The notes under the pieces: model-generated | Told to the model about the DNA's origin: nothing | What the model saw: the letters and a program-made list of their open reading frames with translations, nothing else | Databases searched by the model: none | In this document: in pieces, positions 11,481-29,901 of the stretch | Position numbering within the stretch: position 1 is the stretch's first letter | Layout of the letters: each line of letters opens with the position of its first letter | Assembly (NCBI GenBank): GCA_035352955.1 | Contig: DAOPYQ010000008.1 | Coordinates: forward strand, 9,701 to 73,700 | Source: Candidatus Omnitrophota bacterium | Lineage (GTDB): Bacteria > Omnitrophota > Omnitrophia > Omnitrophales > Aquincolibacteriaceae | Reading direction: 5' to 3' | Length of the DNA stretch: 64,000 nucleotides | Program-made: the position numbers and the translations under genes

Positions 11481-11564
11481 GAAATATGCTGGATGGATAA
11501 TGTTTCGTGTCCCATTTGCGGTATCATACTAAAGCGTCTTTTTCTTGTCAACGCACGAAAACAG

Positions 11565-11612
11565 CTCAACGCGCAACGCACAGCGAGTCCTTTTTTCCGT
11601 TGCGCGTTGCCC
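11565..11612. repeat. GC-rich palindromic intergenic element, copy C (REP-like)
   Basis: Perfect 12 bp inverted repeat CAACGCGCAACG (11568..11579) / CGTTGCGCGTTG (11598..11609) with a 19 nt T-rich loop. Preceded by GCTCAACGCG as in copies A and E. Confidence 0.5.
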
Positions 11613-11668
11613 GACGCGCCCTTCTTGCTTGTGCTTTTACGAGCAGGTGTGCTACATTATCCGCCATC

Positions 11669-12313
11669 ATGCTGAAGATTTTCCGCAAATATACCAAAGT
11701 CATTATCTGGATCGTCGTCGTCTCTTTTGTCCTTTGGGGCGGCTATTCGATCAGCGCGATGAAAAAAGAGGGCCGCTTTGCCGGCGAGGTCTTCGGCAAG
11801 ATCGTCACCTTCCAGGAATTCAACCGGTTTTACCGCGCCACCCAAATCTTCATGCCTTCGAAGGAACCGGTGAAAGACCCCGACCTTCTCCGCAACTACA
11901 CCTGGCAGAACATCGTTTATTCCCGGGAAGCCCAACGCGAAGGCCTCAAGGTGACCGATGAAGAGGTCCGCGGAGAGATCTCAAACATCCTTAATCAGCA
12001 GGGGCTCATCAACCCGACCCCGGAACAATATAAGGTCTGGTTGACCCGGGCCCTGCAGATGTCCCCTCGCGAATTCGAAGAAGGCCTGCGGGAATTCATC
12101 CGGATCCAGAAATTGCTCCAGGGCAAGATTCCTGCCCCTGCGGTCCCTGAAGCCGGCAAGCCCGTCGACAAAAAGGCGGAAGCAGAAGCTTTCGCGAAGC
12201 AAAAAGAAGTATTCATGAAGTGGACCGACGAGCTGAATAAAAATTCCGGTTTCAAGGATTATCTCGCCGTCCAGCAGGGATCGACCGAACCCTCCGAACC
12301 GCCTCAGAGCTGA
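11669..12313 (+). CDS. SurA N-terminal-domain periplasmic chaperone-like protein (PpiD/SurA_N type, no PPIase domain)
   Basis: N-terminus MLKIFRKYTKVIIWIVVVSFVLWG (signal-anchor helix). Then VTDEEVRGEISNIL...PEQYKVWLTRALQMSPREFEEGLREFIRIQKLL, typical of SurA_N. The ATG at 11669 is chosen because the track start at 11507 would read through a palindromic repeat. No SD upstream. Confidence 0.6.
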   Translation: MLKIFRKYTKVIIWIVVVSFVLWGGYSISAMKKEGRFAGEVFGKIVTFQEFNRFYRATQIFMPSKEPVKDPDLLRNYTWQNIVYSREAQREGLKVTDEEVRGEISNILNQQGLINPTPEQYKVWLTRALQMSPREFEEGLREFIRIQKLLQGKIPAPAVPEAGKPVDKKAEAEAFAKQKEVFMKWTDELNKNSGFKDYLAVQQGSTEPSEPPQS

Positions 12314-12316
12314 TCC

Positions 12317-13369
12317 ATGACGAAAAAAACCGTTGAAGAATTCGCGAAGCTTGTCGGTGGAACCGTTATCGGGGACGGAAGGCTCCTGATCGAGGGGATC
12401 ACGAATTTCGAAAATCCGCTGAAGGGTCACCTCTCTTTCGTCCAGGACGAAAAAGGCTTCAAGATCCTCGAAACCTCCGAGATCGCCTGCATGATCGTTC
12501 CGAAACAAATCCAGCGATCCTCCAAAGTCCTGATCCAGGTCGATCATCCCAAACGGGCGTGGGCCGCACTTCTCCGGGAACTCTTTCCCCCCCGAAAATT
12601 CATCCCTGGGATCTCCCCGCAAGCTTCCGTCGCGAAATCCGCGAAATTGGGGCAGAACGTCACGATTGAGGCCTTCGTTTGTATCGGAGAAAATTCCGTC
12701 ATCGGCGACGGAACGGTTGTGAGATCGAGCGCTTTTATCGATGAGAATGTCAAAACCGGTGCGAACTGCGTCATTCATCCGAACGTAACGATCTACCGGG
12801 ACACCGAGCTCGGCGCGAACGTCATCCTCCACGCGGGTTCCGTGATTGGCGCGGACGGGTTCGGCTATGTCGCAACCGCGACCGCACACGAAAAGCTCCC
12901 CCAGATCGGCAATGTTGTGATCGAAGATGACGTGGAGATCGGATCCTGTTCGACGATCGACCGCGCAGCGATCGGTTCCACTCGCATCGGCAGAGGCTGC
13001 AAGATCGACAATCTCGTCCAGGTCGCGCACAACGTGCAGATCGGCCCGCACACCGTCATTTCCGCGCAAACCGGCATCTCCGGCAGTTGCAAGATCGGCT
13101 CTCATGTCACGATGGGCGGCAGTGTCGGGGTCGGGGATCACGTGGAGATCGGCGACTGGGCCATGATCGGCGCCGGCGCGGGGTTCCCTTCTAACAAGAA
13201 AGTCCCTGGTAAACAGATCTATTTCGGCCAGCCTGCCCGTCCTTACGCAGAAATGAGAAAACAGTTCGGTGCGCAGCTCCGCTCCGCCGAAACGTTGGAT
13301 GACGTCCGCGCCCTCAAGAAAAAAGTCGCGGAACTCGAAAAGAGACTAGAAGAAACTTCTCAGAAGTAA
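12317..13369 (+). CDS. lpxD: UDP-3-O-acylglucosamine N-acyltransferase LpxD
   Basis: Left-handed beta-helix hexapeptide repeats throughout ([43 protein letters not shown]...). 350 aa. The start overlaps the upstream stop (ATGA-type junction at 12311..12319). Confidence 0.9.
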
Positions 13370-13376
13370 TCCCCTG

Positions 13377-13433
13377 CCAGCGCAACGGACAACGCGCAGC
13401 GTAAAGATCTTTTCGTGAAACGTTGCGCGAATC
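13377..13433. terminator. GC-rich palindromic element copy D, placed as a candidate bidirectional terminator between convergent lpxD and folE
   Basis: GCGCAACG (13380..13387)...ACAACGCGCAGCG...CGTTGCGC (13421..13428). Fills essentially the whole 64 nt lpxD-folE spacer. No clean U-tract. Confidence 0.4.
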
Positions 13434-14024
13434 TTACTCTTCCCTTTTTAGCCGGATTAGGCTAAGGAATTCGCTGCGGGAGCGGGCGTCTTTGCGGAAG
13501 GCCCCAAGCATGGAGCTCGTAATCGTGTACGCGTCGGCCTTTTTAACACCCCGCATAGACATGCATAGATGTAAAGCCTCGATCACAACCGCGACGCCCT
13601 TCGGTTTTAACGCGTCCATCATGCATTCGGCAATCTGGGTCGTAAGGCGCTCCTGGACCTGAAGACGCCGCGAGAACACTTCGACAAGGCGCGGGATCTT
13701 CGAAAGACCGATGATCTTTCCGTTGGGGATATAGGCGATATGGGCCTTGCCATAGAATGGCAGAAGGTGATGCTCGCAAAGCGAAAAGATCTCGATGTCT
13801 TTCACGATCACCATCTCGTCGTAGGGCTCTTTGAAAACCGCATGCGCGAGGATCGCTTTGGGATCCATTTGATAGCCCTCGGTCAGATAGTGGAGAGATT
13901 TGGCCACACGGACTGGCGTCCGCTGAAGCCCTTCACGTTTCGGATTCTCGCCCAAAAGACCCAATAATTCCGCAACAAGTTTTGGAAACCGTTCTTCTGA
14001 ATCGATCATCTTCTGCTTTGCCAT
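13434..14024 (-). CDS. folE: GTP cyclohydrolase I FolE
   Basis: [56 protein letters not shown] matches the FolE active-site region (CEHH). The ATG at 14024 with GGGAGAG SD is preferred over the GTG at 14057. Confidence 0.9.
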
Positions 14025-14074
14025 AAATTCGCTCTCCCTGAGGAAAACAGGCGCCACTTACTGGAGCCAGTCCC

Positions 14075-15106
14075 CTATTTCAATGATTTTCGAACTGCTT
14101 CCGCAATCTTGATAAAACGCCCGCTTACCAACCCCTGGGAATCCTCCTGAACCACCGGCAGCCCTGAATCTCCGCACTCGCGGATCCGGGCCTCCAACGG
14201 AATGTCCCCCAAGAACGGGATTTGAAAAACCCCGGCCATGGTCTCGCCACCGCCTTTGCCAAAAATAGCGCCGGTCATATTTTCGACCACTCCGAGGATC
14301 GGGATCTCAAGCTGGCGGAACATATTCACCGCCTTCCGCACATCGGCAAGCGCCACTTCCTGCGGAGTCGATACGATCACGACCCCGGACAAATTCACCC
14401 ACTGGGCGAGCGAAAGCTGAATGTCCCCCGTTCCCGGCGGAAGATCCACCACCAGAAAATCCAGCTCCCCCCAATCCACTTTATGGAGAAACTGTTCGAT
14501 CGTCTTGTGAAGAAGCGGTCCCCGCCAGATCACCGGCTGCTCGGGATTCGCAAAAAAACCGATCGAGATCGTCGGCATCCCGTGCGCTTCGACCGGGAGG
14601 ATCCTTCCGTCCGCGGTCCCGTTCGGCCGTTTCTCCGAAGGGATCCCGAGCATGATCGGGATATTCGGCCCGTAAATATCCCCGTCCATGAGCCCGACCT
14701 TTGTTCCAAGCTTTTTGAGAGCGAACGCGAGATTCACAGCCACCGTCGATTTCCCGACACCGCCCTTCCCGCTCGCCACGGCGATCACATACTTGACCCC
14801 CGGAATAGATTTTACCGCGGCAGATTCCCCTGCTGCGGCGGCACCGCAACGCGCCCGGGAAGAAAAATGGATCGTTACCGCATCAACGCCTTCAAGGGAA
14901 CCGAGGACTTGCTCGATCCGGCTACGGAGCGCCGTCTGGATCAAAGAATCCTCCGACGCCTCCAGGTGAAGAAAAACATGTTCGCCGTCGATCGCAATTT
15001 CGCGAACGATCCCGAGTGAGATGATGTCCTCTCTCAGGACCGGCTCTTCGACATGCTTGAGATATTCGATGATCTTTTCGCGGGTGATCTTATTAAAAGT
15101 GGTCAT
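14075..15106 (-). CDS. apbC: Mrp/NBP35/ApbC Fe-S cluster carrier ATPase
   Basis: N-terminal DUF59-like segment. Deviant Walker A VASGKGGVGKSTVAVNLA. CxxC region. 343 aa. Confidence 0.9.
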   Translation of the reverse strand: MTTFNKITREKIIEYLKHVEEPVLREDIISLGIVREIAIDGEHVFLHLEASEDSLIQTALRSRIEQVLGSLEGVDAVTIHFSSRARCGAAAAGESAAVKSIPGVKYVIAVASGKGGVGKSTVAVNLAFALKKLGTKVGLMDGDIYGPNIPIMLGIPSEKRPNGTADGRILPVEAHGMPTISIGFFANPEQPVIWRGPLLHKTIEQFLHKVDWGELDFLVVDLPPGTGDIQLSLAQWVNLSGVVIVSTPQEVALADVRKAVNMFRQLEIPILGVVENMTGAIFGKGGGETMAGVFQIPFLGDIPLEARIRECGDSGLPVVQEDSQGLVSGRFIKIAEAVRKSLK

Positions 15107-15110
15107 AACT

Positions 15111-16022
15111 TCAAACGTTTCCCTTGGGCGCCTCGCTCGCCGACGGCTTCAGAAGGATCCACACAAGCGCCGTCATAAGGATCAGGAATCCCCATCCGAG
15201 GATCCCGTCATAAAGGATCTTGGAGCCCCAGAAAAGCGACCATTTCTGGTGCTGCTTCATAAAAATATCATCCAACCGGACAAAAAAAACACAACCCGCG
15301 TGAAGCCCGATCGACGCATAAAGCGACCCGCTCCGGTAGGCCGCCGTGTTCAGAGCCCACCCAAAAAAGAACAGCCCCACCGCCTGCGGCCAGAACTTCG
15401 GCCATGCGGCCAGAGACAGGAACGGCGCCGTCATTAGGCGAAAACTATCGACCACCGAAGGGGTCTGATCCACAAAGATCTTCTTGATCCCGATGAAATG
15501 GATGAGGGAATAAAAAACCGTCGTGACCAGAATGCTCAGAAACACACGGTTCCCGAAAGTTTTGAGAAGCGACCGGAACACGAATCCGCGAAAAAAGAAC
15601 TCCTCCATAATCCCGATCAAAAGCCCCGTCGCGAGCGCCGCAAGGATCTTCCCGCCCCAGACCACCCACGGGAACGAATCCGGCGCGAAAACCGCCTGCC
15701 CCGCATAAACCCGCAAAGCGCCGACACTTCCCAAGAGAACGAGCCCCGTAAAAAAACCTGTTTTAAAAAGACCCAAGCTCCGCGTATTCCAAAGTAATCC
15801 GAACCGCACCAGCGTCTCCTTACGGATACGAACAAACAAAACGGCGGCCACAAGCGTCCCGATCATCACGATCCGCTGGAAGACCCGTTCGAACTTGTAG
15901 ATCTTGTCGAACCCGAAAAGCCCGAGGAATTTCGGCAGCCAGACATAGAAGAACGGAGCGAGGACCGCGCTCAAAAGAAGGATCACCGCAAAAATGAGAA
16001 CGAATTTAAAAAAACCTTTCAT
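15111..16022 (-). CDS. CPBP-family intramembrane metalloprotease (CAAX protease / Abi-like)
   Basis: Polytopic membrane protein with the CPBP motif EEFFFRGFVF, a downstream HFIGI-type motif and a second conserved His region. 303 aa. Confidence 0.75.
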   Translation of the reverse strand: MKGFFKFVLIFAVILLLSAVLAPFFYVWLPKFLGLFGFDKIYKFERVFQRIVMIGTLVAAVLFVRIRKETLVRFGLLWNTRSLGLFKTGFFTGLVLLGSVGALRVYAGQAVFAPDSFPWVVWGGKILAALATGLLIGIMEEFFFRGFVFRSLLKTFGNRVFLSILVTTVFYSLIHFIGIKKIFVDQTPSVVDSFRLMTAPFLSLAAWPKFWPQAVGLFFFGWALNTAAYRSGSLYASIGLHAGCVFFVRLDDIFMKQHQKWSLFWGSKILYDGILGWGFLILMTALVWILLKPSASEAPKGNV

Positions 16023-16081
16023 GATTTCCTTTCTTTCTTGGAGGGAGAAACATTCTTTTTCTTAAAATGAGCCATTTCTTA

Positions 16082-16537
16082 TCATTTCAACTCAAGCACC
16101 AGTTCGATCTCGACCGCGGCATTCATGGGAAGACTTGCGACACCGACCGCGGACCGGGCATGCGTCCCCTGTTCCCCAAAAACATCGCCCAAAAGCCCGG
16201 AGGCTCCATTCACAACGGCCGGGATCTCATAAAAATCCGGCGCAGCCTGAACAAAACCGGTCATTTTTACGACCCGGGCGATCTTTTCGAACCCGATAAG
16301 ATGCTTCATAACGCTAAGCGAATTCAGCGCCGCAAGACGCGCGGCCTTCTGGCCCTCTTCCAGCGACAGATCCCTGCCGACCTTTCCAGCCAGGACTTTC
16401 CCGTCCGCGTCTTTCGAGACCTGCCCGCTCAGGAAAGCCAGCTTCCCGGACACTACCACAGGTTGATAAAGCCCTACGGGTTTCGGCGCCAGAGGCAATT
16501 GCAGACCTATTTCTTTAATCTTGGAATCTACATCCAT
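16082..16537 (-). CDS. ridA: RidA/YjgF-family reactive-intermediate deaminase
   Basis: 151 aa. Conserved PAR...V.V..LP (ARSAVGVASLP) C-terminal signature and chorismate-mutase-like fold motifs. Confidence 0.8.
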   Translation of the reverse strand: MDVDSKIKEIGLQLPLAPKPVGLYQPVVVSGKLAFLSGQVSKDADGKVLAGKVGRDLSLEEGQKAARLAALNSLSVMKHLIGFEKIARVVKMTGFVQAAPDFYEIPAVVNGASGLLGDVFGEQGTHARSAVGVASLPMNAAVEIELVLELK

Positions 16538-16583
16538 GAGGAAATTTCTCTCCGAATCTTCCGCCGGTATAACAGGGACCGCG

Positions 16584-17291
16584 TCACTTGCGCCCTATAA
16601 TAAGCGTAGCAGTCCCAAAAGAAAAGGATTTCGTGGAAAGCTCAGAAAAACCCGCTTTTTCCATCCTCTCCATGACCACGGAGGGAGACTGGAAATGCCG
16701 CACGGACTCCGACAGGAACCGATAGGCGGTGTCGTTCCCGGAAACCCAACGCCCCACAAGCGGCAGGTAAATTTTCACGTACGGGATAAAGAAAAGTTTG
16801 AGAAGGAAGTTCCGGGGCCGGGTCAGCTCAAGAAAGGCCACTCTTCCTCCCGGTTTCAGAACGCGGAAAATCCCGCCAAGGAATCGCGGCATATCCTGTA
16901 CGCTGCGGAGCGTGAACGCGGAAAGAATCAGATCAAAGCTGGCGTCCGGGAACGAAAGCTCATGGAAATCCCCGGCCTGAAGTTCCACCGGCAGCGGTAA
17001 TTTCATCCTTGCTCGTTCGAGCATCGCCGTCGAAAAATCCAGGCCCACGGCCCTCGTCCAGGGTTTTACTTCCATAAAGCACTTAAGGAAATCCCCCGTG
17101 CCGACCCCGAGGTCCAAGATCGAATCCCCGGAGAGAAGATGTTCGCGCTCCAAAACGTCTTTGGCCTTCTGTCTCCAACCGTCCGAGGCGCCCAAACTCA
17201 GGATCCGATTCAGAAGGTCATAGCGCGGGCTGATCGAATCGAACGTCCTGCAGATAAAATCCTTATCCGGTGCCACGTAAGACTTCGTCAT
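16584..17291 (-). CDS. ubiE: Demethylmenaquinone/ubiquinone C-methyltransferase MenG/UbiE
   Basis: FDSISPRYDLLNRILSLG...ILDLGVGTGD (SAM motif I)...LKPGGRVAFLE. This is the classic UbiE/MenG architecture. The 4 nt overlap with the upstream GNAT is an ATGA junction. Confidence 0.8.
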   Translation of the reverse strand: MTKSYVAPDKDFICRTFDSISPRYDLLNRILSLGASDGWRQKAKDVLEREHLLSGDSILDLGVGTGDFLKCFMEVKPWTRAVGLDFSTAMLERARMKLPLPVELQAGDFHELSFPDASFDLILSAFTLRSVQDMPRFLGGIFRVLKPGGRVAFLELTRPRNFLLKLFFIPYVKIYLPLVGRWVSGNDTAYRFLSESVRHFQSPSVVMERMEKAGFSELSTKSFSFGTATLIIGRK

Positions 17292-17788
17292 GACACAAGG
17301 CCCTTTTCCATCCGGTAGTCATCCAGGAAAAACCCGCCGCCGATATCCTGCGTCACAGATTCAACGTTCTTGAAGCCCATTCCCTCATACGCCCGGATCG
17401 CGGCAATATTTTTCTTGTTCACCGCCAGAACAACCTTACGAAACCCTTTCTTCCTGGCTAACCCTACCGCAAAAGCCATGACTTTCCCTCCGTAACCTTT
17501 CCCGCGGACCGGCGCACGAAGGTAGATCTTACTCAAAAACAGCTCCCTCTTTTCCTCCCTCGGGAGGATCCCAAGATACCCTTCCTCTTGGCCGTCGATC
17601 TGAATCAGATAATAGAAAAACCCTTCCTCAAGCTGCTCCGCAATGGCTTCCTTCGACTGAAATTTCTTGAGCATGTATTCGACTTGCGCCACGCCAACGA
17701 TCGGGGGATAGTGCTCACGCCATATCTCCTGCGCGAGCTTCTCCACCCGGCTGAGGGAGTCCCCAGCCAACGCTTGCGTAATGATCAT
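17288..17788 (-). CDS. GNAT-family N-acetyltransferase
   Basis: Acetyl-CoA binding motif RGKGYGGKVMAFAVGLARKKGFRKVVLAVNKKNIAAIRAYEGMGF. The internal ATG at 17788 forms an ATGA overlap with the upstream stop, which the track start at 17800 would not. Confidence 0.7.
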   Translation of the reverse strand: MIITQALAGDSLSRVEKLAQEIWREHYPPIVGVAQVEYMLKKFQSKEAIAEQLEEGFFYYLIQIDGQEEGYLGILPREEKRELFLSKIYLRAPVRGKGYGGKVMAFAVGLARKKGFRKVVLAVNKKNIAAIRAYEGMGFKNVESVTQDIGGGFFLDDYRMEKGLVS

Positions 17789-18921
17789 CGTTCCAGCCAT
17801 GGTTCCTCGAATCTCTTTACGACATCGTAATTTGTGTCGCGCTGGACCGGCACAAAACCGGCATCTTGGATAAGACGGATTAGGTCCTCCCGCCGCGTAT
17901 TCACCTTAATACCCGTAGGTTCAAGCACCTTATCCTCGAACAAGGTGCCGCCCATGTCGTCGCAGCCGAATGCGAGTGCAATCTGTCCGAGCTTCAGACC
18001 CTCCGTGAGCCAACCACTCTGAATGTGATCAAAATTATCCAGCATGAGCCGCGAGATCGCGACGGTTTTCAGGTAATCATCCCCTCCCGCAGACCTCACC
18101 CCCGCCAACACTCGGAGGCTGCCTTCGTGTTTCCGAGGTCCGACACCGGGTGCTGCATTCGGCTCAAAGTTCATGAAACTCCACGGGATAAACGCGCGGA
18201 ACCCGTGCGTCAGGTCCTGCAACTCGCGAAGCCGGATCAAATGTTCGATCCTTTCCTCCTTTGTTTCAAGATGCCCAAACACCATCGTGGCAGTCGTTTT
18301 GAAACCGGCTTCATGCGCGGTCTTCATCACTTCGAGCCAACGATCGGAAGATATCTTCCTGGGACTGATCAATTTACGGACCCGTTCCACGAGGATCTCC
18401 GCCCCGCCGCCGGGAAGCGAATTCAGCCCCGCCTCTTTGAACCTCCGGAAAAGATCCGGCAAAGGGATACCCGATCTTTGTGAAAGCACGTCCATTTCAA
18501 TGGCAGAAAAAGAATGGATATGGATCTTGGAAAATTTCTCACGGATCGCGCAAACGATATCCAGATAGTAGTCAAACCGGAGATCGGGATGGATACCGCC
18601 CTGGATCAGGACCTGCGTTCCGCCAAGATCCGAAAGCTCCTGTACTTTAGCGAGGATCTGTTCCTTGGAAAGGATATACGCCCCGGAAGCTCCCGGCACG
18701 CAATGGAACGCACAAAATTCGCAACCGATCGTGCAGACATTGGTGTAACTGATGTTGCGGTCCACCACGAAAGTCACGGCATCCCGGAAAAGCCTCGGCG
18801 TAACCGCCTGGGCGGCCTTCCCAAGCGCGAGAAGATCACAAGTATAAAGCCGGACGCCGTCCTCCAATGTGAGACGTTCGCCTCGAATGCGCTTCTCCAG
18901 GATTTTATCGTGAATATCCAT
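17785..18921 (-). CDS. Radical-SAM menaquinone (futalosine-pathway) enzyme, MqnE/MqnC (CofH-like) family
   Basis: CTIGCEFCAF cluster motif. TIM-barrel radical-SAM fold of ~378 aa. IHIHSFSAIE and GFKTTATMVFGHLET resemble MqnE/MqnC/CofH. I cannot distinguish MqnE from MqnC by eye. Confidence 0.75.
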   Translation of the reverse strand: MDIHDKILEKRIRGERLTLEDGVRLYTCDLLALGKAAQAVTPRLFRDAVTFVVDRNISYTNVCTIGCEFCAFHCVPGASGAYILSKEQILAKVQELSDLGGTQVLIQGGIHPDLRFDYYLDIVCAIREKFSKIHIHSFSAIEMDVLSQRSGIPLPDLFRRFKEAGLNSLPGGGAEILVERVRKLISPRKISSDRWLEVMKTAHEAGFKTTATMVFGHLETKEERIEHLIRLRELQDLTHGFRAFIPWSFMNFEPNAAPGVGPRKHEGSLRVLAGVRSAGGDDYLKTVAISRLMLDNFDHIQSGWLTEGLKLGQIALAFGCDDMGGTLFEDKVLEPTGIKVNTRREDLIRLIQDAGFVPVQRDTNYDVVKRFEEPWLER

Positions 18922-18971
18922 TCAAACTCCCAAGGAGACCGGGACTTTTTCTCAAAAAGAACCTGCCCCTA

Positions 18972-19817
18972 TCATTCGAGAAATCTCAACGGCTGCGGCA
19001 ACGGTGAAAGCCCTTGTTCGTGAGCCAGCTCAAAAAAACGCGCGACCCCTTCGTTCATGTCAGAGGTCAACTCATACTGAAGATTCACGAAATAACCGAG
19101 CAACTGGCAGAACCGCCGGTCGTCAGGCGTGATCTCGAGCGCCTGTTTCAACAACCCCTCCGGATCGCTCAGGTTCTTCAGAAGATTTTCCCTAAGAAGG
19201 TCCCGGAAAGCCGCCACCTGCACGGGATATTGCTCCGCGGCCGCTTTACGGACGGCCCAAAGGGCGAACACGAACGGCTTGCCGGTCCATTGCTGCCACA
19301 ATTCCGCAAGATCATACTTGTAAACCATGTCTTTGGGCTGGCAAAAAAGCGCCTGATCCCCGATCACGATCGCCGCCGGATACTTCTGAAGCATGGCTTC
19401 GGGATTCTGCTCCACGGTTTCGAAAGTGTTCGTAAAATCATACCGCCCTTTGAGCAGAATCCGCGCGAGCGTCACGGAACTCAGGCTTTCTTTCGAAAGT
19501 GCGATGACGGCACCATCGAGGGTTTCGAGCTTTTTCCTCGAAAGCAGTAGGACACTCCTTGAAAAGAGCCTCGCGCCGATCCCGAAGCCCAGGAGAAGAT
19601 AATCGTCCTGATGCTGGAGGTATTCCATGGACGAAATGGGAGCCAGATCAATCTCGCCGCGCTGCATCGCATCGTTGATCGCCGCGGGATACGTTTCGAG
19701 GAAGCTCACACCCTGCTCCCACTCTTTTCCCTTGAGCGTTTCTGCGAGTCCGAAATAGAACGGCAGACAATTGAGGTAGCGGATCTTTCCGATCCGGAGT
19801 TGGGTCTGCGTGGTCAT
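18972..19817 (-). CDS. mqnA: Chorismate dehydratase MqnA (futalosine pathway)
   Basis: LRIGKIRYLNCLPFYFGL is the MqnA/MqnD N-terminal motif. Periplasmic-binding-protein-like fold length. The ATG at 19817 overlaps the UbiX stop as ATGA. Confidence 0.75.
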   Translation of the reverse strand: MTTQTQLRIGKIRYLNCLPFYFGLAETLKGKEWEQGVSFLETYPAAINDAMQRGEIDLAPISSMEYLQHQDDYLLLGFGIGARLFSRSVLLLSRKKLETLDGAVIALSKESLSSVTLARILLKGRYDFTNTFETVEQNPEAMLQKYPAAIVIGDQALFCQPKDMVYKYDLAELWQQWTGKPFVFALWAVRKAAAEQYPVQVAAFRDLLRENLLKNLSDPEGLLKQALEITPDDRRFCQLLGYFVNLQYELTSDMNEGVARFFELAHEQGLSPLPQPLRFLE

Positions 19818-20455
19818 GAGCGTTCTGGAATATACCTGGAAAAACTTCCGACCCACCGGGGATAAAGAGCATGCGGTATGTCCATCTGGTCCAAGACCTT
19901 CCCCACCACAAAGTCCACGAGGTCCGACACCTTTTGCTGGGAACCGTAAAAAGCCGGCATCGGAGGAACGATCTTCACGCCTAATCTTGCAAGCTTGAGC
20001 ATGTTCTCAAGATGAATAGCGGAAAGCGGCGTTTCACGTGGTACAAGAACAAACTTGCGGCCTTCTTTGATCGTGCAATCTGCGGCGCGGTGGATCAGAT
20101 TCTGGGAAAGGCCCGACGCAACCGCCCCGAGCGTTCCCATGCTGCACGGAATGATAATCATGCCTTCCGTCGGGTACGACCCACTCGCGATCGGTGCGGT
20201 GAAATCGTGAAAGTCGTGGATCGTGATAGGAACGGGTTCTTTTTTTTTATTATAAAAAAGAGCCCTGTCCTTTTTTTTTATCAAGGGGGACAGTGCCTCA
20301 AAATCGGAATGGCTCCCTTCCTCACGCATAACGATCCGCGCGGTATCGGAGATAACGAGCTCCACCGGAATCTTCTGCTCCGCCAGAATCTCGAGCAGAC
20401 GGATCCCGTAGATGGCCCCGCTCGCACCCGTCATCGCAACAACATAGGGTTTCAT
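19814..20455 (-). CDS. ubiX: Flavin prenyltransferase UbiX family (MqnM-like partner of the UbiD-type decarboxylase)
   Basis: MTGASGAIYGIRLLE...IIIPCSMGTLGAVASG...VLVPRETPLSAIHLENMLKL match the UbiX/Pad1 flavoprotein. It carries a ~17 aa K-rich insertion encoded by two T9 homopolymers (approx 20230..20239 and 20271..20279). Confidence 0.85.
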   Translation of the reverse strand: MKPYVVAMTGASGAIYGIRLLEILAEQKIPVELVISDTARIVMREEGSHSDFEALSPLIKKKDRALFYNKKKEPVPITIHDFHDFTAPIASGSYPTEGMIIIPCSMGTLGAVASGLSQNLIHRAADCTIKEGRKFVLVPRETPLSAIHLENMLKLARLGVKIVPPMPAFYGSQQKVSDLVDFVVGKVLDQMDIPHALYPRWVGSFSRYIPERS

Positions 20456-20520
20456 GAGGTAGTCCTGTTATAAGATTGCATCACGCTTTTTGCAGTTCTG
20501 ACGAGCAATAGCACCTTCAG

Positions 20521-20549
20521 AAAAAATTCGAGGAGCCCGGCAATGCCGG
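20521..20549 (-). terminator. Weak intrinsic-terminator candidate after the PAS histidine kinase
   Basis: Minus-strand RNA: CCGGCauuGCCGG stem (comp ~20537..20549). An UUUUUU run (comp 20521..20526) starts ~10 nt after the stem, so it is non-canonical. Confidence 0.25.
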
Positions 20550-20565
20550 AAGTACGAAGAGAGCC

Positions 20566-22023
20566 TCATCCCTGCGAGGCGTCGGCAGATGCGGTTTTCA
20601 GCGGCAGCTCAAAAGCAAAATAGCTGCCTTTCCCTTCTTCGCTTTCGACCCAAATCCTCCCGCCGTGCAATTCCACGATCTCCCGAGAGATGGTCAAACC
20701 AAGCCCGGTACCGCTGACTCCTTGCATGGCTTGGGATTCGATACGTGAAAACTTTTCAAAAAGCTTCGCGAAATCTTTTTCGGCGATCCCCGGCCCGGTG
20801 TCACGGATCCCGAGCTCGATCTTCTGCGCATCAGCCTTACGCTTTCCCACGACGGTGACCGTCCCACCGTTGGGAGTAAACTTCAGCGCGTTGCCGATCA
20901 GATTGGTCAGAACCTGACTAATCCGATCCTGGTCAGCCTCGATCTCCAACGGTTTTTCAAGCTCTGTATGGATCGTAATACCTTTGGTTTTGCTCCACGC
21001 CGCAAACTCGTTCACCAGAGTTTGAACAAGGTCTTCGGCGTGGAATAGCGTGGGCCTCATGGTGAATTTTTTCGATTCGAGCTTGGAAAGGTCCAAAAGA
21101 TCGTTGATCAGTCGCGAAAGCCGCTCGATATTTCGCAACGCAGTCGCGACGTTCTTTCCCTGGCCCGGTGTGAGAAAATTACCGGCACTGGTGTCCGCCA
21201 GAAGTTGGAGGGACCCCTGAATACAGGTCAGCGGCGTCCGAAGATCGTGAGAAACATTGGCCAAGAATTCATTTTTAAGAGTCTCGATCTCTCGTTGTTT
21301 TGTGACGTCGGAGATCACGGAAACGAAACCCACGGTCTTGCCGTCCTCGCTCTCGATGACGGCGTTGCTGGCAAGGAGCACTTTTTTAACCTGATCATTC
21401 TGGCTCTGGATCACGATCTCTTTGCTTTTTGCCCCGTCCGCCGGCTGCTGCACCAAACTGACCAGCTGCTCTTCCTTCAGATCGCTTAAGATCGATTGGC
21501 CAATCTTTTCTTCCTTTTTGACCCCAAGCAGCTTTTCGGCGGCCGGGTTCATCAGCATGATCTCACCCTTTTTGTTTACCATGATCACGCCTTCAGCCAT
21601 GGAATGGACAACTTCTTCGGTCTGTTTCTTTTCCTCCCCAAGTTCCTTAAACGAGGTATCAAGCTTTTCGAATTTCTCCGTCACGATCTTGACCTTATTG
21701 ACCGCGATATCAAGTGTCTTGTTCTTCTCTTCGATAACGCGCTCGAAGCGTTCCCGTAGCTCGGTGGTCTTTTCCATCGTCTTCTTCTCAACTTCTTTGG
21801 TGACGATCGCGGAGAGCTTTTGCGTCAAAACGCTGGCCTGTTGGGTGTCCCCTTCGATATGCTCTTCAACCTCTTTTGCAAGTTTGTCCGCGAACGTCGC
21901 TTGGGGGACAGCCTCGGGCGAAACCTCGATCTCCCGCTTGCGCCGAAGCACTCCAAAAGCCTGAAAAATGAGGAATATGATCGATAGGACCAAAACGATC
22001 AAAAATATTTGCAGTGCGTCCAT
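20566..22023 (-). CDS. Sensor histidine kinase (TM - coiled coil - PAS - HisKA - HATPase)
   Basis: N-terminal TM helix. Long coiled coil. PAS-like segment. H-box SHDLRTPLTCIQG. N/G1/G2 boxes (NLIGNALKF, DTGPGI, GTGLGL). No response regulator is adjacent. Confidence 0.85.
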   Translation of the reverse strand: MDALQIFLIVLVLSIIFLIFQAFGVLRRKREIEVSPEAVPQATFADKLAKEVEEHIEGDTQQASVLTQKLSAIVTKEVEKKTMEKTTELRERFERVIEEKNKTLDIAVNKVKIVTEKFEKLDTSFKELGEEKKQTEEVVHSMAEGVIMVNKKGEIMLMNPAAEKLLGVKKEEKIGQSILSDLKEEQLVSLVQQPADGAKSKEIVIQSQNDQVKKVLLASNAVIESEDGKTVGFVSVISDVTKQREIETLKNEFLANVSHDLRTPLTCIQGSLQLLADTSAGNFLTPGQGKNVATALRNIERLSRLINDLLDLSKLESKKFTMRPTLFHAEDLVQTLVNEFAAWSKTKGITIHTELEKPLEIEADQDRISQVLTNLIGNALKFTPNGGTVTVVGKRKADAQKIELGIRDTGPGIAEKDFAKLFEKFSRIESQAMQGVSGTGLGLTISREIVELHGGRIWVESEEGKGSYFAFELPLKTASADASQG

Positions 22024-22087
22024 TAAAATGCGTCTCTCTTGGTTGCCGGCAATGCACGCTGGCCGTAAAACGTGTTAAAGATGGGAA

Positions 22088-22095
22088 ATTCTACA
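22088..22095 (-). promoter_or_regulatory. Possible extended -10 promoter (TGTAGAAT) for the histidine kinase
   Basis: The minus strand reads ggTGtAGAATttc ~95 nt upstream of the kinase ATG. The -35 is weak. Hand-identified only. Confidence 0.25.
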
Positions 22096-22174
22096 CCTTC
22101 CAATGCCTTTTCGACGAACCTTTTTACAACTTCGTCTATTCCGCCCACGCTCCTCCGGTAGGGACGCGGGATCC

Positions 22175-23029
22175 CTATAAAGTCACATCAAGTACCGCCG
22201 CGAAGAAAATCGCAAGGCTAACAACCACATTCATCAAAAAAAAGGCTTCGTTGACCCTGGCGACGCCAAAGTTACGAACCAAGAAATGCTCACGGAACAG
22301 AAATCCCGCAACCACCGCCAACCCGATCCAGTAAAAGAAGCCCATTCCCGCAATCGTCCCGGCGAGGCCCCAACAAAGAAAACTTATGGCGTGAAGCAAA
22401 CGCGTCAGTTTCAAAGTGCTCGCGATGCCAAACCGAGCAGGAAATGAAAAAAGCCCCTGCTGAATGTCAAAATCGATGTCCTGAAGCGCATAAATCATGT
22501 CGAATCCGGCAACCCAGCAGGTCACACCGGCCGTCAAAAAAAGCGGCGCCCATGCACATTGCTGCGTGGCAGCGATCCATGCGCCGGACGGCGCAATCCC
22601 GAGGATCAGTCCGAGGATAAAATGGGAGAGCCACGTAAACCGTTTCGCGAAAGGATAAAGCCAAGCCAGTATCAACGGAACGGGCGAAAGCCAGAGGCAG
22701 ATGTTCCCAAGCCGGGCGGCGCTCGTTTCGAAGATCATGAACGACACAAGAATAAGCACCCAGACAAGCGGTGCCATGATCCGGTTCCCCGGAAGCGCCC
22801 GATCCCGAGTCCGGGGATTCAGGGCGTCGATCGAGCAATCGAACAGACGGTTCAGCCCCATCGCCATCGTCCGGAAGCTCACCATCGCGACCGTCACCCA
22901 AACGAACACATCAAGATCCGGCCAGCGCCGGCCGGCCATGAAAAGCCCGAGATAAGCGAAAGGAAGCGCAAATAAAGAATGTTCGAGTTTGATGTCTTTA
23001 AAAAAAATCCCGAGTTTTTTTAAAATCAA
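22175..23029 (-). CDS. UbiA-family aromatic polyprenyltransferase (MenA/MqnP-like)
   Basis: NRLFDCSIDALNPRTRDRALP Asp-rich motif and a second D-rich motif region. ~8 TM helices, 284 aa. Start is TTG at 23029 (no in-frame ATG upstream; stop three codons later). Confidence 0.8.
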   Translation of the reverse strand: MILKKLGIFFKDIKLEHSLFALPFAYLGLFMAGRRWPDLDVFVWVTVAMVSFRTMAMGLNRLFDCSIDALNPRTRDRALPGNRIMAPLVWVLILVSFMIFETSAARLGNICLWLSPVPLILAWLYPFAKRFTWLSHFILGLILGIAPSGAWIAATQQCAWAPLFLTAGVTCWVAGFDMIYALQDIDFDIQQGLFSFPARFGIASTLKLTRLLHAISFLCWGLAGTIAGMGFFYWIGLAVVAGFLFREHFLVRNFGVARVNEAFFLMNVVVSLAIFFAAVLDVTL

Positions 23030-23164
23030 TCGATCGCCTTTTGTTAATTTTGAAACTCGAAACAGCTATCGAATAACGCAAAATCCGCATCGAGGGTTAC
23101 TGGAAAATTTGAATTTAAGATTTATTTCGGGCTTCGCTTCTCGGAGTTTGAGGTTTGAATTTTG

Positions 23165-24631
23165 TTAAAGATATTTCGGATCGAGCCCGTATTCCTTCCA
23201 CCGCGTCTCGACCCGGCGTTTGATCTCATCGGTCATGATAATATCCTCCGGCCAGGGGCGTTCCATCCCTTCATCTCCGCCCTTCCGGGTTGCGTCGATC
23301 CCGATCTTGGAACCGGAAAAATCCCGCGCGGCACCATGATCCAGTTCATCCAGCGGCCCTTCCCCGAACACGATATCGCGCTTCGGGTCCATATTATTCA
23401 GCACGCGCCAAGACACTTCGCGAAGGTCCTGGATGTTCGTATCACCGTCAAGCACCACGATCATCTTGGAAAACATCATCTGCCCGAGGCCCCAGATCCC
23501 GTGAATGATTTTCTTCCCCTGCCCGGGATAGCTCTTTTTGATCGAAACGATCAAGCAGTTATGGAACGCGCCTTCCCACGGCAGGCAGATGTCCAAGATC
23601 TCCGGAAACTGTTTTTGGATCATGGGCAGAAAGATCCGCTCGATCGCCTTGCCTATGTAACAATCCTCCATCGGCGCGCGGCCGACAATGGTCGAAATAT
23701 AAATCGGATTTGTGCGATGCGTCATGCAGGTGACATGAAACACGGGAAAATCTTTGGCCCGCGAATAAAACCCCGTGTGATCGCCGAACGGCCCCTCGAG
23801 ACGCAATTCACCTTCTTCGACATAGCCCTCAAGCACGATCTCGGCGTCGGCCGGCACTTCAAGGTCCACGGTCTTGCACTTCACGAGTTCGACCGGTTTC
23901 TTTCGCAGAAATCCGGCAAGCATTAACTCATCTATCCCGGCCGGCAACGGGCATGCGGCCGAAAACAGGGTCGCCGGATCGGCGCCGATCACACACGCCA
24001 CCGGAAGCCGCCCTTTACTTCCCTTCCCGAGTTTTCGGAAATGTTCAGCGCCATCCTTATGGATCTGCCAGTGCATCCCGGTCGTCTGGTCATCATAAAC
24101 GTGCATCCGGTAAAGCCCGACGTTCCGCTTCCCGTTCTGGGGATCTTGGGTAATGACCAGCGGGAACGTAATAAATTTACCCCCATCTTTCGGCCAACAC
24201 TGGACCACCGGCAGCCCGTCCAAGATCGGCTTCTCGCCGGGCAGAACGACTTTTTCCTGGCACGGCGCGTGCTTCACCCTTTTCGGAAGCACCGCGTTCA
24301 GTTCCGTCAGTTTCGGGATCATCGCGATCTTCTCGAAAATCCCTTGGGGAGGTTTCATGTCAAGAAAGGAACGGATACGTCCGGCGATTTTAGAAACGTC
24401 TTCCACCCCTAAAGCGAGGGACATCCGCTTCGAAGAACCGAACAGATTGATCGCAAGCGGGACGGAGGAACCTTTCACATTTGTAAAAAGAAGCGCCGGC
24501 CCCTCCTTTTTCACGATTCGATCGTAGATCTCCGTGATTTCAAGCACAGGATCGACCGAAGCAGAAATTTCCACAAGCTCTCCGGCATCCCGGAGCGTCT
24601 TAATAAATTGACCGAGATCCTTAAAACCCAT
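23165..24631 (-). CDS. ubiD: UbiD-family (prFMN-dependent) decarboxylase (MqnL-like)
   Basis: MGFKDLGQFIKTLRDAGELVEI...GPALLFTNVKGS...GLYRMHVYDDQTTGMHWQIHKDGAEH fit UbiD. The ATG at 24631 is the conserved N-terminus. The track start at 24748 would overlap the upstream gene by 128 nt. Confidence 0.85.
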   Translation of the reverse strand: MGFKDLGQFIKTLRDAGELVEISASVDPVLEITEIYDRIVKKEGPALLFTNVKGSSVPLAINLFGSSKRMSLALGVEDVSKIAGRIRSFLDMKPPQGIFEKIAMIPKLTELNAVLPKRVKHAPCQEKVVLPGEKPILDGLPVVQCWPKDGGKFITFPLVITQDPQNGKRNVGLYRMHVYDDQTTGMHWQIHKDGAEHFRKLGKGSKGRLPVACVIGADPATLFSAACPLPAGIDELMLAGFLRKKPVELVKCKTVDLEVPADAEIVLEGYVEEGELRLEGPFGDHTGFYSRAKDFPVFHVTCMTHRTNPIYISTIVGRAPMEDCYIGKAIERIFLPMIQKQFPEILDICLPWEGAFHNCLIVSIKKSYPGQGKKIIHGIWGLGQMMFSKMIVVLDGDTNIQDLREVSWRVLNNMDPKRDIVFGEGPLDELDHGAARDFSGSKIGIDATRKGGDEGMERPWPEDIIMTDEIKRRVETRWKEYGLDPKYL

Positions 24632-25298
24632 CCGCAGTCTCCTTTTTCCGGAAAAAATTGCAGCAAGCCCCGAAAGGCACCCGAACAATACTGGCAAGTC
24701 CCTGGAAAGCGATCGCTTGATTGAGCTTCTTGATGTGGACGTACTCATTCTGCTGAAAATGCCCCGACCCTCGAAGGAATTCGGAGGTCCTTTCCTCGAC
24801 CTCTAGCTCAAACGGAAGATCGAAGACCGCAAGCACCATCACCACGGTGAAACATCCGAGACCCATATTGATAAAAAAGTTCAAAGGTCGAAAAAAAACA
24901 CCGAGCAGGAACAGGGCCCATCCGGAAAATACCGCGATCCGAACCACCAACGCCATCCGGTTCTTCAGTCGGACCCAAAAGGTCATGTTGGAGAACTGGC
25001 TTTTGAGAAAAGCCAGCCGCGCGGCTTGGATGAGCGCGAGAAAATCCCGGCCCTCATAGATCTTCGGATCAAGAAAGAAGCCTTCCATCGAAGGATATTC
25101 CCCGGAGGGTTCAAGGGGGGTGACGCTCACGTGAAGGAAACCGCGCTGATCCAAAACATAGCGGGCCACTTCGCAGCCGGTGACCGCGGTCCGGTGGGAC
25201 GGCAAGGTGTATTTCAAAAAAACCCATCGCAAATAGAGGGCGAAGCAAAGGGAAACCACGGCCGTCCCGATGAAAAAAAAACACTGGATAAGATTCAT
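24621..25298 (-). CDS. Polytopic membrane protein, YugP-like (zinc-metallopeptidase-family topology). I see no HExxH in this ORF.
   Basis: MNLIQCFFFIGTAVVSL...SHRTAVTGCEVARYVLDQRGFLHVSV resembles, from memory, the YugP N-terminal region. No HExxH anywhere in the ORF: the expected position reads AARLAF. Two C-terminal TM helices. ATG at 25298. Confidence 0.35.
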   Translation of the reverse strand: MNLIQCFFFIGTAVVSLCFALYLRWVFLKYTLPSHRTAVTGCEVARYVLDQRGFLHVSVTPLEPSGEYPSMEGFFLDPKIYEGRDFLALIQAARLAFLKSQFSNMTFWVRLKNRMALVVRIAVFSGWALFLLGVFFRPLNFFINMGLGCFTVVMVLAVFDLPFELEVEERTSEFLRGSGHFQQNEYVHIKKLNQAIAFQGLASIVRVPFGACCNFFRKKETADGF

Positions 25299-28204: not shown

Positions 28205-29524
28205 CTAAAGGTGGTGAAGAACGAAGTCTTTACCCTTTTTCTGGAGCTCTTTCTTGAGAACGCTGATGAAGGCCTCGACGACCACGGGATCGAACTGAGA
28301 ACCGGCGCAATTCTGTAATTCATCAAAGGCCACTTCGATCGACCGGCCCTCTCGATAGCAACGGGTTGAAACGATCGCATGAAAACTGTCTACCACACTG
28401 ACGATCCGGGCCTCGATCGGAATCTGATCCCCTTTCAACCCGTGGGGATAACCACTCCCGTCGAATCGTTCGTGGTGAGCCAGGATGATCTCCCGGACCT
28501 TCTTAAAATCAGTCAACGGTTCGAGGATCTTGGCGCCCTTTTCAACGTGCGTTTTCATGATCGCCCATTCGTCCGGGTCCAAACGGCCCGGTTTGCACAG
28601 GATCCCGTCCGGGATCCCGATCTTCCCGACGTCATGGAGGATCAGCGCGGCAGAAATAATATCCTTCGCTCGGCCCACGGTATCCATCCCGAGTTCCCGG
28701 GCCGTCATCAACCCCAACCGTTCGACTTCGGAGACATGCCCGAACGTATACGGCTCCTTGGCGTGAACTTCTTCGGCGAGCGAACGCATGATCTCATAAT
28801 AAGTCCGCTGCTCCTTACGCCGCATCCCTTCGATCTCTTCGAGGCGCCGTTCCAGTTCACGATTCTGTTCAAGGAGGCTTTGATTGTATTCCGAGGTCTT
28901 CACCGCCATCGAACAATCGTGGGCCAACGTCTGGAAAAAAGTGACTTCCTGCTTCGCAAAGCACCGGCCGTTGAGGCGACGGCCGAGCATGAGCACCCCG
29001 ACCAGCGTGTCCTTAAAATAACCGGGAACCGCCAACTCAACCTTCAGGTTTTGCATCGCCTTCTGCACCCCGGCAAGCTGTTCAGATTTGGAGTTTGAGG
29101 CCAAACGGAATTCGGCGCGGGAAAGCATTTTTTTAACGTCGGAAAGGAAAAGGTACTCCCGGGAAATAGCCTGTTTTTTCTTGGGATCGGAAAACCACTG
29201 GATCAGGGCATGATCGGGGTCGAACTTAACGAGATTGGCCGGAAGGCGGCCCGTCCCCTTGGAATTGACGAACTCGTAACGCTTCTTTTTGGAATCCAGG
29301 ATCAGGAGAGAGGTGTGCGTCAGACCGAACTGACGGTCAATGAAGCGGGTAATGAGCTTGAGAAGACGGTCGGGCCGCTTGAGACGGACCATGCTGCGAG
29401 CAACATCCCGCAAAACTTCCTGATAATCAAATTTTCCGTTGTTTGTGAAACCGGTACCGGTCGGCATCGCAGACTTGCCCCCTCCGGGGGCGTTCCTTTC
29501 AGGCCTTCGGATCTCGAAAAGCAC
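28205..29524 (-). CDS. GAF-domain HD-GYP phosphodiesterase (c-di-GMP signalling)
   Basis: N-terminal GAF-like domain. HD motif LILHDVGKIG. HHERFDGSGYPHGLKG (HD-GYP signature). GTG start. Confidence 0.85.
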   Translation of the reverse strand: MLFEIRRPERNAPGGGKSAMPTGTGFTNNGKFDYQEVLRDVARSMVRLKRPDRLLKLITRFIDRQFGLTHTSLLILDSKKKRYEFVNSKGTGRLPANLVKFDPDHALIQWFSDPKKKQAISREYLFLSDVKKMLSRAEFRLASNSKSEQLAGVQKAMQNLKVELAVPGYFKDTLVGVLMLGRRLNGRCFAKQEVTFFQTLAHDCSMAVKTSEYNQSLLEQNRELERRLEEIEGMRRKEQRTYYEIMRSLAEEVHAKEPYTFGHVSEVERLGLMTARELGMDTVGRAKDIISAALILHDVGKIGIPDGILCKPGRLDPDEWAIMKTHVEKGAKILEPLTDFKKVREIILAHHERFDGSGYPHGLKGDQIPIEARIVSVVDSFHAIVSTRCYREGRSIEVAFDELQNCAGSQFDPVVVEAFISVLKKELQKKGKDFVLHHL

Positions 29525-29526
29525 CC

Positions 29527-29901
29527 TCAGGCGATCTTAGCAAGAAGATCGATCTTATCCTGCACGTCCTTTTCGAGATATTCCAAGCTCAGGGGTTTGG
29601 TGATGTAATTGTCAGCCCCGAGACGCATGGCTTCTTCGATCTTGTCCTGCGTCTCAACCGCCGTCACCATAATGACCTTCACCTTCGGGTAGCTTTCCCG
29701 GATCTTCTTGAGTGCGCCCAACCCGTCAAGTCCGGGCATCTGAATATCCAAAAGCACCACGTGCGGCTGAAAAACCGCTACCTGCCGGAGGGCGTCCTCT
29801 CCCGAAACGGCAGTCGCCACCTTAAAATCACGGTCTTCAAAGAAAGACTTGAGGAACTCACAGATCTCCACTTCATCATCCACGATCAGCAATTTCTTCA
29901 T
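29527..29901 (-). CDS. Stand-alone response-regulator receiver (CheY-like)
   Basis: LLIVDDE...LLDIQMPGLDG...VIMVTA...KP. 124 aa, no output domain. AAGGAGAA SD. Confidence 0.9.
   Translation of the reverse strand: MKKLLIVDDEVEICEFLKSFFEDRDFKVATAVSGEDALRQVAVFQPHVVLLDIQMPGLDGLGALKKIRESYPKVKVIMVTAVETQDKIEEAMRLGADNYITKPLSLEYLEKDVQDKIDLLAKIA

Follow-up and report, generated by a model that had tools for sequence, protein, structure and literature searches.

The closest described counterpart of the gene array reported here is the futalosine (Mqn) system for menaquinone biosynthesis of Streptomyces coelicolor, in which SCO4490 (UbiD-like), SCO4491 (UbiA-like), SCO4494 (MqnE) and SCO4506 (MqnA) form the reference set behind the models TIGR03701, NF041584 and TIGR03700 and the structure PDB 7AHR. 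Homologues of UbiA, UbiD and UbiX were found by Ravcheev and Thiele in 2016 to co-occur with mqn genes, and were proposed to act in the prenylation and decarboxylation of 1,4-dihydroxy-6-naphthoate (PMC4746308). The names MqnP, MqnL and MqnM stem from this comparative-genomics prediction, which covered human-gut genomes and offered neither an Omnitrophota example nor biochemical proof. In Escherichia coli, UbiA, UbiD, UbiX and UbiE belong to the same families and share the same chemistry, namely prenylation, decarboxylation dependent on prenylated flavin mononucleotide (prFMN), and C-methylation. Here, we analyze an array of mqn and ubi-like genes in a 64,000-nucleotide stretch of DNA (the window) from an uncultured bacterium of the phylum Omnitrophota, identify its enzymes, compare it with related loci, and weigh which quinone it is likely to make.

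We find that the array very probably encodes menaquinone biosynthesis by the futalosine route. An earlier reading of the bare nucleotide sequence (hereafter the original prediction) had placed six pathway genes on one strand within 8 kb, and had matched them to recently described late futalosine steps that use homologues of UbiD, UbiX and UbiA. All six genes lie on the minus strand where it placed them, and its interpretation finds support, with corrections. The array also carries step 1 (MqnA) and step 4 (MqnC) of the route, so that "late-step" is not an adequate label, and the late steps are a prediction already ten years old, most of these proteins being named menaquinone enzymes by NCBI. 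We identified the genes from a listing of open reading frames (ORFs) combined with profile searches in Pfam and NCBIfam, and identical gene models have been called independently on the public source contig.

The window shares with S. coelicolor the adjacency of the UbiD-like and UbiA-like genes and the MqnA active-site residues, and its UbiD homologue passes the SCO4490 model. In contrast to S. coelicolor, mqnA and mqnC are joined into the same array, mqnE is not near, two junctions hold unrelated genes, and the UbiA homologue reaches only 248 bits on the SCO4491 model (cut-off 420). Clusters of Gaiellales and other Thermoleophilia (Actinomycetota; for example our locus L040) likewise hold mqnL, mqnM, menG, mqnA and mqnC in a span of no more than 10 kb, mqnA immediately preceding mqnC. 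Unlike the window, the Gaiellales cluster also has mqnE and a polyprenyl diphosphate synthase gene, and no UbiA homologue was identified beside its mqnL; its proteins share 29–55% identity with those of the window. Compared with E. coli, identities are only 28% (UbiA), 41.5% (UbiD), 39% (UbiX) and 32% (UbiE), the E. coli-type models are not passed, the scanned part of the window ORFs contains no ubiC, ubiG or hydroxylase gene, and the expected substrate would be a naphthoate rather than 4-hydroxybenzoate.

Assignment of the pathway enzymes

The UbiD homologue passes TIGR03701 ("menaquinone biosynthesis decarboxylase, SCO4490") at 611 bits (cut-off 496) but not the E. coli-type UbiD model NF008175, on which it reaches 441 bits (cut-off 788). 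Its 71 closest homologues outside Omnitrophota are 50–58% identical to the window protein, and mqnA or mqnC lies nearby in 39 of the 43 non-Omnitrophota UbiD loci that have at least 8 kb of downstream flank. Among solved structures, E. coli UbiD comes nearest (416 bits, 41.5% identity), and an EGPFGDHTG motif lies at residue 279. We assign this protein as MqnL, a predicted prFMN-dependent decarboxylase of the SCO4490 clade acting in the futalosine route, in agreement with the original prediction.

The PF02621 protein, originally called MqnA from its YLNCLPF motif, matches S. coelicolor MqnA (7AHR/2NXO) with an E value of 1e-35, compared with only 3e-5 for the MqnD protein TTHA1568. Asn17, Ser86 and Tyr242 of the S. 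coelicolor enzyme align with N16, S88 and Y242 of the window protein, and Asn17 and Ser86 have been reported to be absolutely conserved in MqnA and required for activity (PMC9672406). The call is borne out by this far better match and by the retention of the active-site Asn, Ser and Tyr, and the protein is assigned as a predicted MqnA, not MqnD.

The original prediction left the radical S-adenosylmethionine (SAM) enzyme as "MqnE/C-type". We found that it passes the MqnC model TIGR03699 (438.6 bits, cut-off 428.1) and fails the MqnE model TIGR03700 (366.5 bits, cut-off 434.6), and profiles built in this analysis gave 424 bits for MqnC against 328 for MqnE. The Gaiellales locus L040 carries both paralogues, its MqnE scoring 465 on TIGR03700 and its MqnC 481 on TIGR03699, and the window enzyme is 44–48% identical to MqnC paralogues and 37–40% identical to MqnE paralogues. 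In a neighbor-joining analysis, the split between Actinomycetota MqnE with the solved MqnE structure 6XI9 on one side, and Actinomycetota MqnC with the Omnitrophota proteins on the other, was recovered in 99 of 100 bootstrap replicates. The CX3CX2C motif reads CTIGCEFC. Judged by its sequence, the enzyme is MqnC; the MqnC half of the earlier label thus stands and the MqnE half does not. A midpoint-rooted tree of the radical-SAM proteins, built from three clusters only, had put Omnitrophota on the MqnE side and was set aside as uninformative; the addition of 6XI9 made the quartet test.

In the MqnC proteins of Omnitrophia, moreover, the FIPWSF motif is followed by a loop that differs in length between loci (residues about 250–275; window positions about 18097–18174). 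This loop is longest in the window and in loci L007, L008 and L009, and is absent from L011–L014 and from Actinomycetota MqnC. Among the alignment rows displayed, the FIP(W/L) position is occupied by W in MqnC proteins and by L in MqnE proteins.

The UbiA homologue is likely a member of the MqnP clade. Its best NCBIfam match is MqnP_DT, at 281 bits and below the cut-off of 430, and it also scores below cut-off on MqnP_SCO4491 (248, cut-off 420) and MqnP_Cj_Hp (197, cut-off 375); in full, the order of matches is MqnP_DT, PRK12886, TIGR01475, PRK12888, MqnP_SCO4491 and MqnP_Cj_Hp. The generic model TIGR01475 is passed (269, cut-off 181), and the proteobacterial UbiA model TIGR01474 is failed (103, cut-off 275). 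The protein gave no match to MenA models and no BLAST match to E. coli MenA, and is 27.9% identical to E. coli UbiA. The protein carries the two Asp-rich motifs, NRLFDCSID (residue 60) and DMIYALQDIDFD (residue 177). The gene adjoins mqnL, and the same pairing is implied for S. coelicolor by the model locus tags SCO4490/SCO4491. The proposal that this protein is MqnP is therefore upheld in part: MqnP models give the best matches and TIGR01474 fails, yet every MqnP cut-off is missed. A database search with the protein returned at least 120 matches 55–100% identical to the query; the few that bear an organism name are Omnitrophota, and the matches listed are named "UbiA-like" or "4-hydroxybenzoate polyprenyltransferase". 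At a distant locus (L150, 7499–9563), the gene of a UbiA homologue with 38% identity to the window MqnP has directly after it a gene for an MqnE-type radical-SAM protein, which scores 464 bits on the MqnE profile versus 369 on the MqnC profile.

The remaining two enzymes belong to well-defined families. The UbiX homologue passes NF004685 (208 bits, cut-off 188) and TIGR00421 (207, cut-off 109), matches solved UbiX structures with E values of about 1e-47 to 1e-48, and is 39% identical to E. coli UbiX and 37–56% identical to members of the Actinomycetota cluster. It is a clear UbiX, and the ATGA overlap of its gene with mqnA is what suggests a role as MqnM. The methyltransferase passes TIGR01934 (MenG_MenH_UbiE) at 180.5 bits (cut-off 158.4), scores 143 bits on PF01209, and carries the MenG/UbiE SAM motif LDLGVGTG at residue 59.

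Conservation and organization of the array

The menaquinone gene array is a chromosomal locus of uncultured Omnitrophota whose closest relatives are Omnitrophia, Aquincolibacteriaceae. NCBI labels the array proteins "Candidatus Omnitrophota bacterium", and an MqnC that is 100% identical occurs in the metagenome-assembled genome (MAG) GCA_964411105.1 (contig CAYPJP010000007.1, 137.9 kb), in GCA_035403665.1 and in several metagenomes. The nearest species representatives are Omnitrophota MAGs with UbiD identities of 67–82%, and three of these representatives, AM5_bin-0692, AM-sed-core1-D1_bin-136 and UBA1443, are placed in Omnitrophia, Omnitrophales, Aquincolibacteriaceae by Seymour et al. 2023 (supplement to PMC10066038). 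Housekeeping genes flank the array on both sides: dnaE, guaA, guaB3, lpxD, folE and apbC on one, and on the other rluD, lgt and lspA, followed by a dksA-like gene, genes of a two-component system, and ileS.

We compared the array with eight species representatives (L007–L014), two loci found by protein look-up (L097 and L098), three found through the Zn_peptidase-like protein (L180–L182) and about 20 metagenome contigs. The shared gene order is dksA-lspA-lgt-rluD-(Zn_peptidase-like)-mqnL-mqnP-[junction 1]-mqnM-mqnA-mqnC-[junction 2]-menG-ridA-CPBP protease-apbC-folE, and about 30 Omnitrophota loci, with MqnP identities as low as 48%, keep the core mqnL-mqnP-mqnM-mqnA-mqnC-menG with its ORFs intact. 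Nearly all genes from 5 to 64 kb of the window lie on the minus strand, with negative guanine–cytosine skew throughout, and the co-directionality of the array is therefore uninformative. Instead, the clustering is real because the six pathway genes keep their order in about 30 related loci.

The two junctions, by contrast, hold unrelated genes in different lineages. In the window, a PAS sensor kinase occupies junction 1 (mqnP/mqnM) and a GNAT acetyltransferase occupies junction 2 (mqnC/menG), exactly the two interruptions that had been noted before. Junction 1 is empty in many loci, and elsewhere contains small ORFs (L007, L098) or an RluD-like gene (L011, L123, L125). In L120, more than 8 kb (9988–18686) are taken up by an island with a NeuB-cupin protein, a NUDIX protein, a methyltransferase, a GT2 glycosyltransferase and three radical-SAM/SPASM or B12-radical-SAM proteins. 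No mqnM was found in the flank after mqnP in L111, L112, L115 and L119, which suggests that these loci carry insertions like that of L120. The mqnP/mqnM junction is an insertion hot spot. A kinase is present there only in the window and in L097, and the two PAS kinases are just 32% identical; we rejected the kinase as a conserved part of the array, most lineages lacking it. Junction 2 is empty in L007, L013 and L014, holds a GNAT gene in the window, L008, L009/L108, L011 and L124, and is occupied in L012 by an 858-aa ORF, with a gap of similar size in L010. GNAT homologues with 52–55% identity occur in contexts without mqn genes in three other phylum-level groups, namely in Phycisphaerales, in Ignavibacteriaceae and in a MAG whose protein is labelled Desulfobacterium sp. 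N47 by NCBI. The GNAT protein was accordingly rejected as a pathway enzyme, being present in junction 2 of some lineages only and having homologues elsewhere in unrelated contexts. Because their junctions hold unrelated genes in other lineages, the sensor kinase is probably a passenger in a variable junction rather than a pathway enzyme, and the GNAT is probably a passenger as well. The kinase may nevertheless have a regulatory link to quinone synthesis, and the gene overlaps indicate that the GNAT is co-expressed with mqnC and menG.

Several ATGA overlaps had been reported within the array; ubiX/mqnA and GNAT/menG do overlap in this way, and they are the only two. Longer overlaps join mqnC to the GNAT gene (16 nt) and the Zn_peptidase_2-like gene to the start of mqnL (11 nt), so that stop and start codons overlap at four junctions, indicating translational coupling. 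The kinase gene, in contrast, is flanked by gaps of 151 and 110 nt. The array probably comprises two transcription units, (Zn_peptidase-like)-mqnL-mqnP and mqnM-mqnA-mqnC-(GNAT)-menG-..., and the insertion-prone junction, here with the PAS histidine kinase, probably separates them. A promoter and terminator scan of the sequence returned no more sites than shuffled sequence did. The coordinates of the array are collected in Table 1.

Table 1. Genes of the array, with positions in the window and the profile or model evidence for each.
Gene or product	Position	Strand	Evidence
Zn_peptidase_2 (YugP-like) membrane protein	24621–25298	-	PF04298, 71.5 bits
mqnL (predicted), UbiD family, 488 aa	23165–24631	-	TIGR03701 passed
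mqnP (likely), UbiA-family membrane polyprenyltransferase, 284 aa, TTG start	22175–23029	-	top match MqnP_DT
sensor histidine kinase, 485 aa: N-terminal hydrophobic stretch, PAS, HisKA, HATPase	20566–22023	-	Pfam/NCBIfam
mqnM/ubiX (candidate mqnM), flavin prenyltransferase, 213 aa	19814–20455	-	NF004685 and TIGR00421 passed
mqnA (predicted), chorismate dehydratase, 281 aa, YLNCLPF motif	18972–19817	-	PF02621, 199 bits
mqnC (predicted), radical-SAM (CofH/MqnC-type) cyclic dehypoxanthinyl futalosine synthase, 378 aa	17785–18921	-	TIGR03699 passed
GNAT N-acetyltransferase, 170 aa	17288–17800	-	Pfam Acetyltransf_1; no specific NCBIfam model passed
menG/ubiE, demethylmenaquinone C-methyltransferase, 235 aa	16584–17291	-	TIGR01934 passed; PF01209
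RidA/YjgF-family protein, 151 aa	16082–16537	-	PF14588, PF01042

Two further genes are fixed at the ends of the array. The Zn_peptidase_2-like gene overlaps the start of mqnL in every lineage sampled, L097, L098 and L180–L182 among them, and its product has QAARLAF where more distant family members have the HExxH motif. HExxH is missing in all 31 Omnitrophota orthologues. Among 150 cluster representatives, the 33 closest lack it, and a further 88, more distant, carry it at the corresponding alignment position. Three of the motif-less homologues (29–34% identity; L180–L182) each lie directly upstream of, and overlap, a UbiD gene within the same block, and we saw the motif-less clade solely in this position. 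The protein is thus positionally linked to the array. At the other end, a RidA/YjgF-family gene, whose PF14588 match is named "YjgF/chorismate_mutase-like", directly follows menG in every related locus; we saw no link of this family to the pathway outside Omnitrophota, and regard the gene as a syntenic neighbor of the array.

Proposed pathway and competing readings

In the pathway that we propose, MqnA would dehydrate chorismate to 3-enolpyruvyl-benzoate, MqnC would carry out the radical-SAM cyclization of dehypoxanthinyl futalosine, and UbiX/MqnM would supply prFMN, functions assigned from sequence. Homology, gene context and the published prediction suggest that MqnP then prenylates 1,4-dihydroxy-6-naphthoate, that MqnL, charged with prFMN, decarboxylates the product to demethylmenaquinone, and that MenG/UbiE methylates demethylmenaquinone to menaquinone. 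We favor an order in which prenylation precedes decarboxylation because E. coli UbiD, the closest characterized relative of MqnL, acts on a substrate that is already prenylated. Ravcheev and Thiele left the order of these two steps open (PMC4746308).

The futalosine route also needs MqnE, an (amino)futalosine nucleosidase (MqnB or a methylthioadenosine (MTA) nucleosidase) and MqnD. The remark in the original prediction that neither mqnB nor mqnD is visible is confirmed by a six-frame profile scan of the window and 8.4 kb to its left, which returned one MqnC-type radical-SAM protein and one PF02621 protein. The PF02621 scan used an MqnA-based profile, which found one protein per locus at E <1 and which a distant MqnD may escape. 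The sole PF01048 (PNP_UDP_1) protein of the window, encoded at 34428–35276 on the minus strand, was considered as MqnB and rejected: it passes the purine nucleoside phosphorylase models NF006054 (357 bits, cut-off 218) and TIGR01700 (311, cut-off 293), no MqnB or nucleosidase model is among its matches, and it is a PunA-type purine nucleoside phosphorylase. Its gene sits between ileS and a yggT-proC-yggS-like group, and the same ileS-adjacent gene is found in L099. We infer that mqnE, mqnB (or an MTA nucleosidase gene) and mqnD are encoded elsewhere in the genome, because every lineage examined has kept mqnA and mqnC intact and their active-site motifs conserved, and because the Streptomyces tags SCO4490, SCO4494 and SCO4506 make scattered mqn genes normal. 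A complete Omnitrophia genome is predicted to carry the three genes at other loci.

A number of points count against a menaquinone pathway of this kind. The UbiA homologue lies below the cut-offs of all three MqnP models, and MqnM cannot be told apart from other UbiX proteins by any available model or identity value. A search for mqnE, mqnB and mqnD came up empty for the window, for the 8.4 kb on its left and for the 9–10 kb around every related array, and completeness of the pathway is assumed. The late steps (MqnP, MqnL, MqnM) go back to a comparative-genomics prediction (PMC4746308), and no quinone measurement is known for Omnitrophota. Public names also disagree with this assignment: NCBI calls the UbiA homologue of the window "4-hydroxybenzoate octaprenyltransferase", and JGI calls its orthologues "4-hydroxybenzoate polyprenyltransferase".

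The missing genes could instead mean that the pathway is truly incomplete in small-genome, possibly host-dependent cells, with an intermediate taken up or unrecognized enzymes acting at the MqnE, MqnB and MqnD steps. We consider this distinctly unlikely. The three genes are absent near the array in about 30 lineages, while Gaiellales keep mqnE beside mqnA and mqnC; Omnitrophota have been described as reduced, host-dependent nanobacteria (PMC10066038); and two genes without an assigned role, for the motif-less Zn_peptidase_2-like protein and the RidA-family protein, are fixed at the array ends. However, the search behind this absence covered the array neighborhoods, and the reference tags point to separate Streptomyces loci, making dispersal of mqn genes unremarkable. 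MqnA, moreover, would be useless without MqnE, yet mqnA is preserved with its active site wherever we looked. A broader version combines two ideas, that Omnitrophia run a non-canonical futalosine route, with mqnE, mqnB and mqnD replaced by uptake or unrecognized enzymes, and that the decarboxylase MqnL may have a lineage-specific partner in the YugP-like protein, which could for example act as a membrane tether. This combination is unlikely, and the pattern behind it is possibly trivial because the whole surrounding block is syntenic and the search covers the locus only.

Other readings concern the product rather than the completeness of the route. That the UbiA, UbiD, UbiX and UbiE homologues make ubiquinone is very improbable in our assessment, although ubiquinone in Omnitrophia and Aquiviventia has been inferred from a 4-hydroxybenzoate polyprenyltransferase match (Seymour et al. 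2023, PMC10066038), the same 4-hydroxybenzoate names are attached by NCBI and JGI to the window UbiA protein or its orthologues, and the UbiD homologue has E. coli UbiD as its nearest solved structure. The same study reports that chorismate lyase (UbiC) is missing and the canonical ubiquinone pathway incomplete, its text never mentions the futalosine route, and the KEGG module tables in its supplement list only M00116 and M00117, the modules for the classical Men and Ubi pathways. Further against ubiquinone, the E. coli-type UbiD and proteobacterial UbiA models fail while the menaquinone decarboxylase model is passed, and mqnA and mqnC stand in among the UbiA, UbiD, UbiX and UbiE genes, to which they are coupled in translation. 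In the part of the window ORFs covered by our scans, we found none for UbiC, UbiG, ring hydroxylases or UbiB/UbiJ, and likewise none for MenF, MenD, MenH, MenC, MenE, MenB or MenA. A non-respiratory naphthoquinone or other prenylated aromatic, such as a secondary metabolite made from futalosine-route intermediates, is extremely improbable as the product. Futalosine-type genes are reported to serve also for a naphthoquinone chromophore in a Streptomyces macrolide cluster (PMC4763440). Here, in contrast, the flanks are housekeeping genes (rluD, lgt, lspA, apbC, folE, lpxD, guaA, dnaE) with no tailoring, polyketide or export genes, and conservation of the block across a wide range of Omnitrophota fits a core function.

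Menaquinone is thus better supported than ubiquinone as the likely quinone of this clade, because the "4-hydroxybenzoate polyprenyltransferase" gene shares a conserved array with mqnA, mqnC and a menaquinone-type decarboxylase. The redox potential of menaquinone is lower than that of ubiquinone, and menaquinone in place of ubiquinone changes how the respiratory chains of Omnitrophia and their relations to oxygen are read. For the exact window proteins, NCBI gives the names "menaquinone biosynthesis decarboxylase" (the UbiD homologue), "menaquinone biosynthesis protein", "cyclic dehypoxanthinyl futalosine synthase" and "flavin prenyltransferase UbiX", such that a menaquinone decarboxylase stands beside a 4-hydroxybenzoate prenyltransferase and public names conflict inside one operon. 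This illustrates an annotation trap, in which KEGG- or COG-style UbiA, UbiD and UbiX labels can mislead outside Pseudomonadota. In our literature search, "futalosine" occurred with an Omnitrophota name only in a 2026 survey, which names the phylum once. The pathway is textbook knowledge and the array was already machine-annotated; our result amounts to a modest correction on the quinone and not to a new kind of system.

Other features of the window

Further from the array, a 7031-aa ORF occupies 42832–63924 on the minus strand, its end adjoining tyrS. The N-terminal half of this ORF contains HEAT repeats, a PHP domain and a complete Glu/Leu/Phe/Val dehydrogenase domain pair, and its C-terminal 3515 aa have no Pfam match. 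Four co-directional genes at 37220–41446 on the same strand encode an ABC ATPase, an ABC-2 permease, an ABC_transp_aux protein and a DUF4340 protein. A group of three genes at 28205–31461 (minus strand), flanked by ileS and the dksA-like gene, encodes a histidine kinase and two response regulators, one of a single domain and one of the HD-GYP type (HD_5); this trio holds the same position across related loci, where the kinase orthologues give weak GAF matches.

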